30,523 nt of DNA, taken from positions 1 through 30,523 of the IMG/VR virus record IMGVR_UViG_2737471824_000004; one strand, written 5' to 3'. Source of the DNA: a virus (lineage: Duplodnaviria; Heunggongvirae; Uroviricota; Caudoviricetes). The translations under genes and the position numbers were made by a program. The stretch's first letter is position 1; each line of letters opens with the position of its first letter. Below are positions 2,694 to 20,568 of this stretch, one piece after another. Under the pieces are notes generated by a model. It made no database searches, was not told where the DNA came from, and saw only the letters and a program-made list of their open reading frames with translations.

Positions 2694-2707
2694 TATCGTT
2701 TCCTCGA

Positions 2708-3262
2708 TCAATGGATATTAAGTAACTGCTCCACGGTCATATTTTTAATTACGTCCCTGTTCACAAGCGTCCATCCCTGTTTCTCCAGATAAAAGCGGAA
2801 GGTTTCCAGGGTACAGACTATTGCTCCATCAGGAACGGTTTCAGTGAATTTGATGTTGCCGTGTTCGTCGAAGTGAACAACCAGAGTACGGCCATCGCCA
2901 GGAATCATCTTGTCAGCGGACGGGGTGTTATTCTGGCGCAGCTCTGCCTCCATGCGGTCAAACTCGGCAATGTAGGCTTCTTTGAACGCGGCGGCTTTTT
3001 TGCCGGTGAACCCCATCACCAAAAAAACGAAGCCGTTTTTGGTGATCTGGTACATTGGGAGCTTGCGTCCTGTTGAGTCGGTGTATTCGCTCGACACAAA
3101 ATTGTGCTCAGTGAATTTTGCTGAACAGTCCAGATTGCGAATTTTATCCAACACTCGTTCGTGGCGTTTACCAAAGAACTCGGCGATCGCAACAGACGTA
3201 GTGACAGCGCGACCATTTTCGATGGTTACATCAGGGTGATAAATGGTAGGGGTAGTAGCCAT
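2708..3262 (-). CDS. Rha-family phage regulatory/antirepressor protein with C-terminal domain shared with the ORF6N protein at 17746..18309
   Basis: Rha motif (VAIAEFFGKRHERVLDKIRNL...YQITKNGFVFLVMGFTGKKAAAFKEAYIAEF). Start chosen at ATG 3262 with GGAGG RBS 8 nt upstream; the in-frame upstream extension to 3670 crosses a terminator and a leader whose paralogue is non-coding. Confidence 0.7.
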   Translation of the reverse strand: MATTPTIYHPDVTIENGRAVTTSVAIAEFFGKRHERVLDKIRNLDCSAKFTEHNFVSSEYTDSTGRKLPMYQITKNGFVFLVMGFTGKKAAAFKEAYIAEFDRMEAELRQNNTPSADKMIPGDGRTLVVHFDEHGNIKFTETVPDGAIVCTLETFRFYLEKQGWTLVNRDVIKNMTVEQLLNIH

Positions 3263-3428
3263 GATGGCAGCCTCCGCGATGAATTTAATTAACTCACCAC
3301 CAGAGGTGCTAATCTCATGGGTGGTGAGACGCACAGGGTTAGCACTACCGGTCATCACGGAACCCGGCCAGCCTTGCGGCTGCCCTGCACGCCTCACCAT
3401 AATGCGAATGTGGCTGTGCTTAACGCAT

Positions 3429-3451
3429 AAAAAAACCGCCTGAGCGCGGTT
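3429..3451 (-). terminator. intrinsic terminator in the Rha leader (stem AACCGC/GCGGTT plus U7 on the minus strand)
   Basis: Hairpin at 3434..3451 followed on the minus strand by a 7-T run (plus-strand A-run 3429..3435). Confidence 0.5.
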
Positions 3452-3511
3452 ATGCGCCGTGATTGACTTCGGGGTGCTAATCCCGGCACCCGTTTTATGA
3501 GGTGCAGGTGA

Positions 3512-3540
3512 ACTATAATTCCACCCGTACTGGTTTTCAA
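3512..3540 (-). promoter_or_regulatory. sigma70-like promoter of the Rha cassette (-35 TTGAAA, 17-nt spacer, -10 TATAGT on the minus strand)
   Basis: Minus-strand hexamers at 3535..3540 and 3512..3517; homologous in position and sequence to the promoter at 17469..17497. Confidence 0.4.
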
Positions 3541-3739
3541 TAGCTACATTCAACATTTTCTCTTGCCTTTCATCACCGAAGTGAACTTTATTGATGCGGT
3601 GCCTGGTGCCTCCAGGTGACGTTAACCAGTTAACAATTAACGCCGGATACAGAGAATCCACCCATAACACTGTTTTTAGTTTTAACTGTTCCGCGTGCGC
3701 TTAGCCGCATTCACCGCATCACAAAATTCACTTTAAAAA

Positions 3740-3792
3740 GGGCGGCAGAGCAGTCACGGAGTAAAACTGATACCGCCAAACGTCACCAGAAA
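3740..3792 (-). ncRNA. dicF: DicF small RNA (53 nt), followed by a T-run at 3735..3739
   Basis: Minus strand reads TTTCTGGTGACGTTTGGCGGTATCAGTTTTACTCCGTGACTGCTCTGCCGCCC then TTTTT, matching my recollection of the 53-nt E. coli DicF including its GGCGG/CCGCC terminator stem. Confidence 0.8.
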
Positions 3793-4986: not shown

Positions 4987-5115
4987 TCAGCCGTTAGATT
5001 TTGCCGAGCTGGAAAGCGCCTGTTTAAACTCACTGAAGCTGAGAGCTTCTTCGCCTTCGGCAAGGCCTTCGAAGTATTCTTCGTAAGCCTTTTCCATGAT
5101 TGTGTCGAAATCCAT
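4987..5115 (-). CDS. YdfB/YdaG-like small protein (42 aa)
   Basis: Hand translation MDFDTIMEKAYEEYFEGLAEGEEALSFSEFKQALSSSAKSNG; RBS AGGTGAG; start 1 nt after the upstream stop; below the ORF-track length cutoff. Confidence 0.5.
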   Translation of the reverse strand: MDFDTIMEKAYEEYFEGLAEGEEALSFSEFKQALSSSAKSNG

Positions 5116-5116
5116 A

Positions 5117-5272
5117 TCACTCACCTGAGTTTCTTTCCAGCCAGCGACGGGCACCATTTTCGGTTTTAAACGTTTTGCTTTTGGTATACGTCATCGCGGT
5201 GAATGTGCCGTCCTGGTTGGGAAACACGCCGTACACCAGAGATTCGTTGTTGCCAAGATCGATAGTATCCAT
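5117..5272 (-). CDS. YdfA/YdaF-like small protein (51 aa)
   Basis: In-frame ATG at 5272 with GAGGT RBS (MDTIDLGNNESLVYGVFPNQDG...); first gene of the leftward early operon. Confidence 0.55.
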   Translation of the reverse strand: MDTIDLGNNESLVYGVFPNQDGTFTAMTYTKSKTFKTENGARRWLERNSGE

Positions 5273-5457
5273 GTTGACCTCATTTCCCCTTAACGCCGGG
5301 GTAGCGGAACAAGAACCTGCTGCATAGTTATTAAAGTTGAACCCTGCCGTCATGTTCTTACGCCTCGGGCTGGCTACTTAACCCCTGACCACTGCCTGGT
5401 AACTCGAAGTATTGCCCTGCGTTCTGTGGGGCGGGGTGGGGTGGTGAAATAAGGATG

Positions 5458-5494
5458 CACTTTTAAAGTTATTATGTCAACACTTATAAAGTTA
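5458..5494. promoter_or_regulatory. left operator-like region: two copies of a 14-bp motif (CACTTTTAAAGTTA 5458..5471, CACTTATAAAGTTA 5481..5494) flanking a minus-strand TTGACA
   Basis: Same motif in opposite orientation in the cI/cro intergenic region (TAACTTTTAAAGTG 6522..6535); a -35-like TTGACA (minus, 5475..5480) lies between the copies. Confidence 0.4.
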
Positions 5495-5507
5495 GTTTGT
5501 GTGCAAC

Positions 5508-5531
5508 AAAAACCGCCTCGAGATGAGACGG
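5508..5531 (-). terminator. intrinsic terminator after the repressor-TA operon (imperfect stem CCGTCTC/GAGGCGG plus T5 on minus strand)
   Basis: Plus-strand hairpin 5513..5531 preceded by an A-run 5508..5512. Confidence 0.45.
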
Positions 5532-5544
5532 CCCTGTGAAAGGG

Positions 5545-5832
5545 TTAGTTCTGCTTAGGGAATTGGCGTCTGGCGTGTACTACACTCACGATCTCAATGC
5601 TTAAAGTGGCTACACGGTAAAGAATTATATAGTTAGGGTGAGCTACAATCTCACGCAAGCCAGGTACTCTGTCGCTTGGTGGGTATAAATACGGGTGTTC
5701 GGATAACGGCAGCACACACCCCCTTAATCGCTGCCATAAGCGTTCTGCCGCATCTATGTCGAAACGAGCAATATAACTAGTTATATCATCCAGGTCGGTA
5801 TCTGCGCTTTCAAGCCATAACACGGGTAACAT
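5545..5832 (-). CDS. type II toxin, ParE/RelE superfamily (95 aa)
   Basis: C-terminal signature ...REIVAHPNYIILYRV...VVHARR typical of ParE/RelE toxins; start ATG 3 nt after the upstream antitoxin stop with RBS ACGGAG inside that gene. Confidence 0.7.
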   Translation of the reverse strand: MLPVLWLESADTDLDDITSYIARFDIDAAERLWQRLRGCVLPLSEHPYLYPPSDRVPGLREIVAHPNYIILYRVATLSIEIVSVVHARRQFPKQN

Positions 5833-5835
5833 TTA

Positions 5836-6024
5836 CTACTTACTCCGTTCCTTGCGCATTTTAGCAAAGCGTTCTGCCATTCTGCGCTCAACCTCGTCAT
5901 GGGGAATTGCTGGGCGCGGATTTGCAAGGCTCGCTGCTACTTTCGCACGCAGCCATTCGTTGTAACTGTTTTCTTGTTCAATGGTTTCGAACTCAGAAAC
6001 CATTGGTGAAAGGGCCGTATTCAT
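5836..6024 (-). CDS. type II antitoxin (ParD/StbD-like, 62 aa) paired with the toxin at 5545..5832
   Basis: ATG 6024 with RBS CGGAGG 6 nt upstream; the longer track frame from 6087 would overlap the repressor gene; small acidic protein directly upstream of a ParE-like toxin. Confidence 0.6.
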   Translation of the reverse strand: MNTALSPMVSEFETIEQENSYNEWLRAKVAASLANPRPAIPHDEVERRMAERFAKMRKERSK

Positions 6025-6053
6025 GGCACACCTCCGTCTGTGTATGGTGGTCA

Positions 6054-6461
6054 TTATGCTCGATGCCCTTTCCGGGCAGCGAGCCATCTTTCAATTGTGC
6101 GCTCCATTAACTCTTTTTTGTCTTTCATCTCCTGAAGCATTTGTCCCTGTTCTTCCTCTGGGAATGCTCCAAATGTCTGAAGTAGCTCTCTTTGCTTCGG
6201 ACCTATTTTCATTGTGTCAGGTACCACAATCTGTTCGTCCTCACTTGGTGGCAACATAAACCAATATGGAGGGAATCCTGTTACTTCAGAAAGTTTATCA
6301 AGATTAGCCATTGATGGGCTTGTGATGCCATGAACCCACTTTTGGACCGATTGTTGGGCAACACCTATTCTGCGGGCTAGTTCTGCTTGCTTAAGCCCTG
6401 TTTTTTCCAGCACCAGTTTTATCCGGTACGTGGTTATTTCAAGAGTGGTCATTCGCTTCAT
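6054..6461 (-). CDS. prophage repressor, DicA/RacR-like (135 aa, N-terminal XRE HTH, no S24 peptidase domain)
   Basis: HTH motif LKQAELARRIGVAQQSVQKW; size and C-terminal pattern resemble DicA as recalled; divergent from the Cro-like gene; leaderless start at the predicted pRM. Confidence 0.75.
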   Translation of the reverse strand: MKRMTTLEITTYRIKLVLEKTGLKQAELARRIGVAQQSVQKWVHGITSPSMANLDKLSEVTGFPPYWFMLPPSEDEQIVVPDTMKIGPKQRELLQTFGAFPEEEQGQMLQEMKDKKELMERTIERWLAARKGHRA

Positions 6462-6568
6462 GCATTCATTTTACACAAAAAAAGTGTAGCTAGCATAATC
6501 AGCTTGAAAGTGTTGATAATGTAACTTTTAAAGTGTATAAGTGATGTCGATTGATTGGAGTTAACGAT
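6462..6568. promoter_or_regulatory. divergent immunity promoter/operator region (pR-like rightward, pRM-like leftward)
   Basis: Rightward TTGATA (6513..6518), 17-nt spacer, TATAAG (6536..6541); leftward -10 TAAAAT (minus, 6468..6473) placing the start at the ATG 6461; three AAAGTGT copies at 6481, 6507, 6530 (spacing 26 and 23 bp); palindrome TACAC-A7-GTGTA at 6472..6488. Confidence 0.55.
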
Positions 6569-6847
6569 ATGCATAAATGTTTAAAAAATAAAATTCGCCA
6601 AATAGGGTTATCCCAAGCGGGTATTGCTCGCTTGATTGGGTTGCCACAGCAGGTTGTATGTCGATGGGTTAATGGGCAACAGGTCCCTGCATCAAGGGTT
6701 TTACAACTGTGTGAGATTATGGCGTGGACTGTCACCCCCCACGAGCTCCGACCAGATATTTACCCTAACCCAACCGATGGCCTGCCTTGTGGACGTAAGA
6801 GTACAGCGAATGAATTACTGGCGGTGAACAATGAAAATCACTCCTGA
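6569..6847 (+). CDS. Cro/YdaS-like HTH regulator (92 aa)
   Basis: ATG 6569 with GGAG RBS 8 nt upstream; HTH LSQAGIARLIGLPQQVVCRW and HELRPD motif typical of YdaS/Cro-like proteins. Confidence 0.7.
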   Translation: MHKCLKNKIRQIGLSQAGIARLIGLPQQVVCRWVNGQQVPASRVLQLCEIMAWTVTPHELRPDIYPNPTDGLPCGRKSTANELLAVNNENHS

Positions 6848-7352
6848 ACAGGTTTGCGAGGCTCTGGATGCCTGGGTATGCAAACCAGGAATGACACAGG
6901 AGCAGGCGACGATATTAATCACAGAAGCATTCTGGGATCTGAAAGAGCGCCCGAACATCGATGTTCAGCGTGTCACGCTTGATGATGGCGGGGTTGATCA
7001 GCGTGCGCTTGGCGTTAACCGGGTGAAGATATTCGAACGCTGGAAGGCTATCGACACCAGGGATAAGCGTGAAAAATTCACGGCGCTGATTCCGGCAATT
7101 ATGGAGGCTATCCGGATTAGTGATTTCAGGTTGTACCGCGAAATTACTGATGGAAAAAGCATTACGTACATGATTGCCGGGTTAAACAAAGAATATGTCG
7201 ATGTGGTGGAGTCCGGGCTGCTTTTTGCAGATCCAGCTGTTGTGGAACGTGAGACAGACGAGCTTATAGAAAAAGCAATCGCTTTCAAGCGTGCCTATCG
7301 TCACCAGTACCAACAAAAAGCCGGATGGAATTATGAGCCTTCTTTTTGCTGA
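6831..7352 (+). CDS. YdaT-like protein (173 aa), function uncertain
   Basis: ORF-track ORF overlapping the Cro-like stop; position after the Cro/YdaS-like gene matches the Rac order racR-ydaS-ydaT-ydaU-ydaV; family assignment from memory only. Confidence 0.4.
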   Translation: MKITPEQVCEALDAWVCKPGMTQEQATILITEAFWDLKERPNIDVQRVTLDDGGVDQRALGVNRVKIFERWKAIDTRDKREKFTALIPAIMEAIRISDFRLYREITDGKSITYMIAGLNKEYVDVVESGLLFADPAVVERETDELIEKAIAFKRAYRHQYQQKAGWNYEPSFC

Positions 7353-13010: not shown

Positions 13011-13186
13011 TGCAGCGGGTGCTTGAGGCTATCTGTCTCAGGCATGAACACCAAAAGGCAGATAGAGAAAAGCCCCAGTTAACATTACGCGTCCGGCAAG
13101 ACGCTTAACATTAATCTGAGGCTCAATCTATGAACGGCAAATCTAGGTTAGCCTCTTACGTGCCGAAAGGCAAGGAGAAGCAGGCT

Positions 13187-13342
13187 ATGAAGCAGCAAAA
13201 GGCGATGTTAATCGCCCTGATCGTCATCTGTTTAACCGTCATAGTGACGGCACTGGTAACGAGGAAAGACCTCTGCGAGGTACGAATCCGAACCGGCCAG
13301 ACGGAGGTCGCTGTCTTCACAGCTTACGAACCTGAGGAGTAA
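13187..13342 (+). CDS. hokD: Hok/Gef-family type I toxin (51 aa; HokD/RelF-like)
   Basis: MKQQKAMLIALIVICLTVIVTALVTRKDLCEVRIRTGQTEVAVFTAYEPEE: transmembrane helix plus LCEVR...EVAVF signature; AAGGAG RBS; in-frame upstream extension from 13130 is a mok-like leader frame. Confidence 0.75.
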   Translation: MKQQKAMLIALIVICLTVIVTALVTRKDLCEVRIRTGQTEVAVFTAYEPEE

Positions 13343-17497: not shown

Positions 17498-17560
17498 TCC
17501 TCACGCGTCAGCAAAATCTGGCGTCGGGATTAGGAACCCCGGATAGAGACCGCGACAGAT

Positions 17561-17583
17561 ACACGCCGCGAGCGTGTTTTTTA
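17561..17583 (+). terminator. tR'-like intrinsic terminator (ACACGC-CGCGA-GCGTGT plus T6)
   Basis: Direct reading; about 70 nt downstream of the pR'-like promoter. Confidence 0.5.
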
Positions 17584-17745
17584 TTGTCGTATGCACGCGC
17601 ACATCTGAATTATGGTGGGGCGTATGGGGGAGCTGAAAGGCTCGCCGGTTGGTTTCCCGGTAGTTCCTAACCCTGTACGTCTCACCACCCGATGATTAGG
17701 AACCTGACGGTGGTGATAGTTTAGAAACCACTAGAGGGCGTCATT

Positions 17746-18309
17746 ATGACAACTCAAATCTCTGTTGAAACTCTCTCCCCGATCACCCATAACCAGATTC
17801 CTGTTATTACCACTGAACTTTTGGCGCAGCTTTATGGCACCGAAATTCTGAATATCCAGGTTAACTTCACCAGAAACAAAGAGCGTTTTGTCGCAGGAAA
17901 GCACTTTTTTAAAGCAGCGGGTGAGGAATTAAAAAAATTGCGACTTACTTTAAGTAAGTCACAAAATCCCATCTCTCCCAAAACCCGCTTCCTCATCCTA
18001 TGGACAGAACGCGGAGCTGCCCGCCACGCAAAAATGCTGGAAACAGATCAGGCGTGGGAAGTATTCGAAAAACTGGAAGACTGTTATTTCAGCCAGAAAC
18101 AGCCACCAGCAACACAAAACTCCCCCACCGAAAATGATGGATGCGCATTACTGATCCACTTCGATAAACACGGTCAGGTCGACTTCACGGAAAAAGTACC
18201 CGCCGATGCGATGGTATGCACTCTGGAACGGTTCAAATTTTATCTGGAACAACGCGGCTGGATCGTTGCCAGTAAAGAGCAACTGGTGGAACGACTGATG
18301 CGACTTTAA
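17746..18309 (+). CDS. ORF6N/KilA-N-type antirepressor-like protein with the same C-terminal domain as the Rha protein (187 aa)
   Basis: N-terminal ITTELLAQLYGTE...NKERFVAGKHFF...LWTERGAARHAKML resembles the ORF6N domain; C-terminus LLIHFDKHGQVDFTEKVPADAMVCTLERFKFYLEQRGW parallels the Rha C-terminus; RBS GAGGG. Confidence 0.65.
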   Translation: MTTQISVETLSPITHNQIPVITTELLAQLYGTEILNIQVNFTRNKERFVAGKHFFKAAGEELKKLRLTLSKSQNPISPKTRFLILWTERGAARHAKMLETDQAWEVFEKLEDCYFSQKQPPATQNSPTENDGCALLIHFDKHGQVDFTEKVPADAMVCTLERFKFYLEQRGWIVASKEQLVERLMRL

Positions 18310-20221: not shown

Positions 20222-20513
20222 ACAACGAATCCTTCTGATCTGCTTTTGCGGGGCTTTTTTGTATCCGCTCCATGCCCGGCGTATAAGCGGAGGTTGGTCA
20301 GTTTTCTAAAAATTGAAATACCTCACAATTCAGCCAGTTAATGGTTGTTTGTCTGGCGAAGAGTTTGTAAATAAAAAAACGCATGGTGAATCCCCCTAAG
20401 CGGCGGGGCGAATCAGCAGTCAGTTCTGGGATAATCGCGGGTTTGTATGCTGATGCCGGACTCACCGGGAGGCACCCGGCACCATGCATCATGGTCATCC
20501 CCTTGTATGATAC

Positions 20514-20568
20514 CCCTCTCCGGAGGGGTATTTTTTGGATAAAAAAGCCCGCGCTGGGAGGCACGGGC
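20514..20568. terminator. back-to-back terminator-like hairpins (plus: CCCCTC-TCCG-GAGGGG plus T6 at 20514..20537; minus: hairpin 20547..20568 with T6 on the minus strand)
   Basis: Direct reading. Confidence 0.4.

Follow-up and report, generated by a model that had tools for sequence, protein, structure and literature searches.

In phages lambda and 434, a single repressor and a single Cro protein act on the two divergent early promoters through related dyad sites, which overlap the -10/-35 region and lie approximately 23-24 bp apart. The repressor operon of these phages ends at a terminator before PL, and the boundaries of the immunity region fall at PL and near the end of cro. Three operator sites are typical of lambdoid OL and OR regions but are not required, as illustrated by phage 933W, which has two OL sites.

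Prophage CP-933P of E. coli O157:H7 carries the module paaR2-paaA2-parE2 / ydaS-ydaT with the promoters PRM933P, PR933P and PL933P (Jurenas et al. 2021, PMC8630535). Both PaaR2 and YdaS protect the OR region and cover overlapping DNA, the study leaving open which exact sequences each of the two proteins reads (PMC8630535). In addition, PL933P, whose operators resemble those of OR, is repressed approximately 100-fold by PaaR2 and by YdaS, and the paaR2 mRNA was shown experimentally to be leaderless (PMC8630535). PaaR2 has also been reported to form octamers.

The Qin prophage of E. coli K-12 carries the dicA-dicC / dicBp switch (Bejar et al. 1988, cited in PMC10448788; Yun et al. 2012, PMC3441716). 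Deletion of dicA derepresses dicBp 22-fold (PMC10448788), and of the three OR operators predicted from sequence, DicA bound just one (PMC3441716). For DicA/Rem, and likewise for the Gifsy phages, induction has been proposed to work by an antirepressor or through repressor instability (PMC10448788). A further module of this type, racR-ydaS-ydaT, is found in the Rac prophage (PMC11879457).

The DNA analyzed here, a stretch of 30,523 bp that we refer to as the window, contains a lambdoid immunity region of the DicA / PaaR2-YdaS-YdaT kind. On the basis of comparative sequence analysis, we consider it very probable (roughly 0.85) that positions 5458-5494 constitute the left operator, OL1 plus OL2, of this prophage switch.

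The immunity module and its counterparts

The prophage repressor is encoded at 6054..6461 on the minus strand and comprises 135 amino acids, with an N-terminal HTH_3 domain and a PaaR2/DicA-type C-terminal domain. An earlier note on this DNA had named the gene cI, and a prophage repressor it is, but not one of the lambda cI kind: a Pfam search of the 135-aa protein returned HTH families only and no Peptidase_S24 domain. It is a short DicA/PaaR-type repressor without a cleavage domain. The window thus differs from lambda, 434 and P22, whose repressors (cI, cI and c2) carry the S24 autocleavage domain, while sharing with lambda and 434 a layout of related dyad sites at both early promoters, over the region contacted by RNA polymerase. 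Similarity to DicA, which is likewise 135 residues long and without a RecA-cleavage site, extends over 109 aa including the HTH (34% identity, E = 2e-17). Phage Evi, which has the same immunity as CP-933P, encodes a PaaR2-type repressor that aligns with the C-terminal 80 aa at 41% identity, and the N-terminal domains of these two proteins do not align. Only in its N-terminal domain does the window repressor resemble 434 cI and P22 c2; among solved DNA-binding domains the nearest comes from the 434 repressor, the recognition helix starting Q-Q-S in both proteins.

Divergent from the repressor gene lie a Cro-like regulator of the YdaS HTH family (6569..6847 (+); Pfam YdaS_toxin, E = 1.3e-10) and a YdaT-family, CII-like gene (6831-7352; Pfam YdaT_toxin). 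The Cro-like protein matches the Cro protein structure 3bd1 (E = 8e-4) and is distantly similar to DicC (26% identity) and to the CP-933P-type YdaS (25% identity). The YdaT-box TTGATT-N6-AATCAA does not occur near the ydaT-like gene and is not enriched in the window. On the other side, the repressor gene is followed by a PaaA2-type antitoxin gene (5836..6024 (-); Pfam PaaA2, E = 2.7e-19), the start of which was taken from the RefSeq annotation of a 99.8% identical prophage, and by a ParE-family toxin gene (5545..5832 (-); Pfam ParE_toxin, E = 8e-16). This paaA2-parE segment (5545-6024 (-)) has approximately 93% DNA identity to Evi/CP-933P while the flanking DNA-binding domain of the repressor and the operators differ, and the pair appears to form a sub-mosaic inside the immunity module. 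To the left of PL are a ydfA-like gene (DUF1391 by Pfam; 5117-5272 (-)) and, within the leftward operon, the DicF sRNA (Rfam; 3740-3791 (-)), which together make this operon the counterpart of the Qin dicBF operon. No dicB was recognized downstream of DicF, its place being taken by a C4/isrK and antirepressor unit.

Compared with CP-933P, the window has the same gene order, with the repressor, paaA2 and parE genes preceding PL and with divergent ydaS-type and ydaT-type genes (Pfam), and the two also have in common the conserved leader that follows PL and a -10 hexamer, putative in the window, placed 6 nt before the repressor ATG. The repressor N-terminal DNA-binding domains are unrelated, however, so that the likeness to PaaR2 does not extend over the full length of the protein, and the operators of CP-933P are of the GTTTAGTAA type (TTTAGT-type) rather than TAACTTTNAAAGTG; because of this difference in operators, the window and Evi/CP-933P are heteroimmune. 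Further differences are the number of OL sites (two in the window, three reported for CP-933P) and the hexamers of PL and PR, which differ from each other in the window and are identical in CP-933P.

The Qin prophage has the leftward operon ydfA-ydfB-ydfC-DicF, to which the operon of the window, with its ydfA-like gene and DicF, appears to correspond, and its dicBp promoter (TTGACC-17-TAATCT) bears one operator copy in the spacer and another upstream. Both prophages have one strong OR site, DicA having bound Oc and not Om or Oa. In contrast to the window, Qin has no toxin-antitoxin pair between the repressor and PL, a different leader after PL and a different operator motif (Oc, TTGTTAGTCATAACTAACAA). 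Rac has the same module layout and the same PL leader as the window, together with its own PL repeat, TTAGGCATnnCCTA, which abuts the -35 and recurs inside the spacer, but it carries a different member of the repressor family and a different operator. Given its counterparts in CP-933P and Qin, the window therefore represents a heteroimmune member of a characterized family of switches. A literature search with the motif string returned unrelated papers only, and the operator sequence was not found described in the searchable literature.

Repeated 14-mers at the two early promoters

Within the 30,523 bp, the motif TAACTTTNAAAGTG (searched as TAACTTTWAAAGTG over the whole window, with up to two mismatches allowed) occurs at 5458-5471 (-), at 5481-5494 (-, one mismatch) and at 6522-6535 (+), and nowhere else. 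The plus-strand letters at these positions are CACTTTTAAAGTTA, CACTTATAAAGTTA and TAACTTTTAAAGTG, respectively, and the earlier description of the two left 14-mers as inverted copies of the one in the cI/cro intergenic region proved accurate in sequence and in coordinates. In reverse complement, OL1 (TAACTTTAAAAGTG) is identical to OR1 at 13 of 14 positions, the sole difference being the central base of the dyad, and OL2 (TAACTTTATAAGTG) at 12 of 14. The operator dyad, TAACTTT-N-AAAGTG, is of odd length and has a conserved asymmetry, every strong site being asymmetric in the same way, with TAAC on one side and CAC on the other; this is a feature that a purely symmetric dimer model leaves unexplained.

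When the whole window was shuffled, a mean of 0.44 matches with up to two mismatches was obtained, and three matches arose in 1 of 100 shuffles. The best 14-mer common to both intergenic regions (107 and 191 bp) has 1 mismatch, and 6 of 1000 dinucleotide shuffles gave an equally good match. Allowing 3 mismatches over the whole window brings no excess (13 found versus 9.7 expected). For a motif this rich in A and T, sequence statistics give only moderate significance, and the case therefore rests on the placement of the sites and on their conservation in comparison with other prophages.

With regard to placement, the minus strand at PL reads, in succession, TAACTTTATAAGTG, TTGACA, TAA, TAACTTTAAAAGTG and CATCCT. 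OL1 (5458..5471 (-)) lies between the -10 and the -35, at promoter positions -13 to -26, and OL2 (5481..5494 (-)) abuts the -35 and occupies positions -36 to -49, the spacing between the two being 23 bp from centre to centre. The -35 hexamer (TTGACA, 5475-5480 (-)) is a perfect consensus, invariant in relatives at all 6 positions, and the equivalent hexamer of heteroimmune relatives is found at an equal distance from the common leader. The earlier note had found no convincing leftward -10, yet a candidate can be placed: CATCCT at 5452-5457 (-), 17 bp from TTGACA and matched in position in relatives. It agrees with the consensus at only three of six positions (A2, T3 and T6 are kept), which is why it was passed over in that first reading and by a consensus scan with a threshold of 4/6.

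The place of this hexamer is taken by CATCCT, CATTCT or CATCAT in relatives of the window type. When the PL regions of heteroimmune prophages were anchored on the conserved start of the leader, ACCA(A/C)CCCACCCCGCCCC, the corresponding -10 hexamers were TATGAT in a sister group of five loci (L016-L020), TAAACT in Evi/CP-933P and locus L022, TATAGT in Rac, TATCCT in L025 and CATTAT in L026, and upstream of each there is a -35 resembling TTGAC or TTTAC. Six bases separate the hexamer from the leader in the window type, the sister group, Evi and L022, and the register is approximate in Rac, L025 and L026. That six heteroimmune PL promoters have -10 hexamers of their own at about the same position relative to the leader lends independent support to CATCCT as the probable -10. 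The primer R-PL-BamHI, which was used for the PL933P reporter, ends six bases after TAAACT (in Evi), at the position homologous to 5446 of the window (PMC8630535, supplementary).

From the promoter geometry, PL transcription is predicted to start at the A at 5445 (-), 7 nt after the -10. Alignments of the window to more than 3,000 E. coli genomes with other immunities stop at 5445-5456, beside OL1, which indicates that the immunity-specific DNA begins at the predicted PL start, like the classical boundaries of immunity regions; on the right side, similarity to other phages is regained close to the end of cro, at about 6820. The PL operon opens with a leader (5273..5444 (-)) that ends at the ydfA-like gene (ATG at 5272). 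This leader, of approximately 173 nt when counted from the predicted start at 5445, shows conservation across many immunity types, including Rac, and in more than 3,000 of the 5,426 complete E. coli genomes. It was also considered as a structured RNA of the put- or nut-like type, a proposal that was rejected because 176 nt of it fold no better than shuffled sequences (z = +0.93), and an Rfam search of 5100-6700 with E values up to 1 gave no match for it.

Just upstream of OL2 lies an intrinsic terminator (5505..5531 (-)) with a 7-bp GC-rich stem, a 5-nt loop and a T-run. The surrounding segment (5495-5550 (-)) has a folding energy of -16 kcal/mol (z = -2.98), and the stem and T-run are retained in relatives despite base changes. 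A third OL site was considered and discarded, its position coinciding with the T-run of the terminator and being variable among relatives.

On the cro side, the plus strand reads TCAGCTTGAAAGTG, TTGATA, ATG, TAACTTTTAAAGTG and TATAAG. OR1 (6522..6535 (+)) fills the spacer between the PR -35 (TTGATA, 6513..6518 (+); TTGATA or TTGATT in relatives) and the PR -10 (TATAAG, 6536..6541 (+); TATAAA or TATAAC in relatives), in the same register (-13 to -26) as OL1 in PL. The two promoters are in fact parallel over approximately 45 bp, in the order site-GTG, -35, three nucleotides, 14-mer and -10, so that in both of them the 17-bp spacer consists of three free bases plus the 14-mer and a second site touches the -35. 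All three 14-mers have identical orientation relative to the hexamers of their own promoter, and those inside a spacer (OL1 and OR1) also identical register.

In addition to OR1, the right operator probably holds two further, weaker sites. The OR2-like candidate (6499..6512 (+), TCAGCTTGAAAGTG) has 3 mismatches, and its spacer is in effect shorter by one base. It adjoins the PR -35, in the manner of OL2 at PL, lies 23 bp from OR1 and has 8 of 14 columns invariant; locus L011 has TAACTTATAAGTG at this position, and the sister group has a full site. As there is no enrichment at 3 mismatches, this assignment is one of position only. The OR3-like candidate (6472..6488) is a perfect 17-bp palindrome, TACACAAAAAAAGTGTA, centred 25.5 bp from the OR2-like site, with 16 of 17 columns invariant. 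Its core is ACAC-N7-GTGT, the form of the operators of the sister group, which has a full operator at this position, and unlike the 14-mers of the window. The right operator thus comprises one consensus site and two degenerate candidates, and the left one two sites, rather than three at each. Since predicted OR sites of Qin failed to bind DicA (PMC3441716), the OR2-like and OR3-like sites are treated here as candidates only.

A putative -10 for PRM, TAAAAT at plus-strand positions 6467-6472, is touched by the OR3-like palindrome and is 6 nt from the repressor ATG (6461), a distance that suggests a leaderless repressor mRNA, as for paaR2. The same geometry, GATAAT-6 nt-ATG, is seen in Evi. In the 99.8% identical prophage, RefSeq has the repressor begin at the fourth codon (6452, MTTLE...), giving a protein of 132 aa. 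The promoter geometry favours the ATG at 6461, with a leaderless mRNA, over 6452. With a start at 6461, the OR2-like site would be centred near -44 and the palindrome near -19 of PRM, which we take to be roughly the positions of lambda OR2 and OR3 relative to that promoter. A rightward promoter proposed by a promoter scan (TTTACA-18-CATAAT, 6470-6499) was rejected, its -10 not being conserved in relatives.

Conservation and covariation of the sites

The relatives used were all supplied by a scan of viral contigs, which gave 20 loci; a scan of genome contigs for relatives of the repressor yielded no confirmed locus. In 13 loci (L003-L015) the repressor is 87-100% identical to that of the window, with residues 1-50 identical, and, with two mismatches or fewer, 39 of the 40 motif matches in these loci coincide with the positions of OR1, OL1 and OL2. 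Among 10 distinct relatives, the invariant columns number 13 of 14 in OL2, 12 of 14 in OL1, 12 of 14 in OR1 and 6 of 6 in the PL -35, counts that come from related prophages and do not represent independent events. The variable columns of OL1 are the central base and one neighbour, and the central base of the 14-mer is A in some relatives and T in others, the behaviour to be expected on a dyad axis. At PL and PR alike, none of the three nucleotides that separate the -35 from the 14-mer is invariant, and only 3 of 13 columns are invariant in the stretch just upstream of OL2.

In the sister group (L016-L020), whose repressor has 68% identity to that of the window, the C-terminal half of the protein is nearly unchanged and the DNA-binding domain is different (recognition helix SQQTVQRW versus AQQSVQKW in the window type). 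The HTH of the Cro-like protein is different as well. These five loci contain no copy of the 14-mer of the window and instead carry ACAC-N7-GTGT, or variants with ACTC/GAGT, in three copies at OR (23 and 25 bp apart) and two at PL, one abutting TTGACT and one in the spacer, so that all five operator positions are as in the window. Repeats of their own, in the PL spacer and beside the -35, are also seen in Evi/CP-933P, Qin, Rac and two further immunity types. The operator sequence therefore appears to be specific to the immunity type and to change with the DNA-binding domains of the repressor and of Cro, and an exchange of motifs together with those domains looks like the behaviour of operators rather than that of promoter spacers or of chance similarities.

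Two loci, L021 and L022, were excluded from the covariation argument. At about 2700-3400 they contain two repressor-like genes in tandem, and at their PL stands an Evi-like TTTAGT motif in place of the one that would go with the second repressor; their immunity region may be recombinant or decaying.

Alternative readings and the proposed switch

The different form of the OR3-like palindrome raises the possibility, which we regard as unlikely, that the right operator has a mixed specificity, with OR1 of the TAACTTT-N-AAAGTG type and the PRM site (6472-6488) an ACAC-N7-GTGT palindrome. If the two forms were read differently, the 14-mers could be targets of the repressor and the palindrome a target of the Cro-like protein, and the asymmetry of the strong sites would fit a protein that reads two half-sites differently. 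A phage of the sister group, whether co-resident or superinfecting, could then shut off PRM, which, if true, would amount to a built-in cross-immunity interference, or anti-immunity route, between related prophages.

Also unlikely is an arrangement in which the 14-mers serve the Cro-like YdaS-family protein, mainly or exclusively, and the repressor binds elsewhere, for example at the palindrome at 6472-6488. The Cro-like HTH covaries with the operators too, its recognition helix also starts Q-Q, the palindrome differs in form from the 14-mer, and in CP-933P the overlapping protection by both proteins does not separate the sequences read by each (PMC8630535). Nevertheless, the repressor and Cro share operators in every characterized relative (lambda, 434, CP-933P and Qin), PL933P and dicBp are both repressed by the repressor (PMC8630535, PMC10448788), and a lysogen must silence PL and PR, where the 14-mers are the only strong repeats.

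That the left and right sites resemble each other through common descent or duplication of the promoters, the spacer being kept for RNA polymerase or for DNA shape and the 14-mer being read by no protein, is distinctly improbable. Such an origin would account for the parallel between PL and PR over approximately 45 bp, which includes the hexamers and the preceding GTG, and for the like orientation of the asymmetric 14-mer relative to each promoter. It does not account for OL2, which is outside the core promoter and is nevertheless the best conserved copy (13/14), for a dyad symmetry with a free central base that flips between A and T, or for the variation of the spacer bases outside the motif. 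Moreover, the heteroimmune relatives keep the positions of the hexamers, while their spacers are wholly different, internally repeated and track the DNA-binding domains.

A chance resemblance of AT-rich intergenic DNA draws some support from the shuffles, 6 of 1000 for the intergenic regions and 1 of 100 for the window giving results as good, but all three copies stand at promoters in the same register, 13 related loci have kept them with 39 of 40 matches positional, and the operators covary with the DNA-binding domains; these comparative data make chance very unlikely, to the point of being negligible. Almost no weight can be given to an autoregulatory operator of the paaA2-parE pair, for although classical type II pairs autoregulate through operators and the distance from the parE stop codon to the left sites is 50 bp, these sites follow parE and the terminator instead of preceding paaA2, PaaA2 has no DNA-binding domain, the CP-933P pair is controlled by the repressor from PRM (PMC8630535), and the same motif is present at PR.

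The reading of 5458-5494 as a left operator served by the repressor of the right one, which the earlier note had put forward, is therefore preferred, with support from placement, conservation, covariation and the precedents of CP-933P and Qin. In the switch that we propose, dimers of the 135-aa HTH repressor would bind the dyad TAACTTT-N-AAAGTG, and later, in the lytic pathway, the Cro-like YdaS-family protein would probably use the same operators. With OL1 in the PL spacer and OL2 against the -35, bound repressor would exclude RNA polymerase and silence the operon from ydfA to DicF, and OR1, in identical register inside TTGATA-17-TATAAG, would silence cro at PR. The sites at 6499-6512 and 6472-6488 may act as weaker OR sites, at the places of lambda OR2 and OR3 relative to a probably leaderless PRM, and the terminator at 5505-5531 would keep the repressor-paaA2-parE transcript from reading into PL. 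The motif, its position at the hexamers, its conservation and its exchange along with the DNA-binding domains are shown by the sequences compared, whereas we infer repressor binding itself, the start near 5445, cooperativity, and whatever OL-OR looping or function of OR2 and OR3 there may be; looping over approximately 1.05 kb is possible in that PaaR2, whose C-terminal domain is shared by the window repressor, is reported to be octameric.

The architecture is a standard lambda-like design and leaves the understanding of such switches unchanged. What the comparison adds, for one immunity type with 42 carriers among the 5,426 complete E. coli genomes that were searched, is a definition of the likely operator TAACTTT-N-AAAGTG, of the PL and PR promoters and of the boundaries. 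In this family of prophages (relatives of Qin, Rac and CP-933P), the switches control DicF, division inhibitors of the Kil type and toxin-antitoxin pairs. The window thereby provides an additional repressor/operator pair for comparing short repressors that are without a cleavage domain, as well as ready constructs for tests of heteroimmunity.

No LexA box that could provide an SOS link was found in the 30,523-bp window, and as the repressor also has no cleavage domain, induction presumably proceeds via an antirepressor or through instability of the repressor. Pairs of isrK and C4-antisense RNAs occur twice in the window, at 3317-3505 (-) with an ORF at 2708-3670 (-) and at 17505-17692 (+) with an ORF at 17746-18309 (+), the first copy being situated inside the PL operon, downstream of DicF. 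Each pair is followed by an antirepressor-type gene, one with Ash and Rha domains and the other ORF6N/Ant-like, in a layout that resembles the immI region of P1 (c4-icd-ant) and the isrK-antirepressor units of Gifsy. These two genes are candidates for the inducing function in a switch whose repressor lacks a cleavage domain. Rfam also places a sok antitoxin RNA and the sRNA STnc100 at 13017-13192 (+) and 20352-20540 (+); the sok RNA belongs to a hok/sok module, and hokD is annotated in a related prophage.
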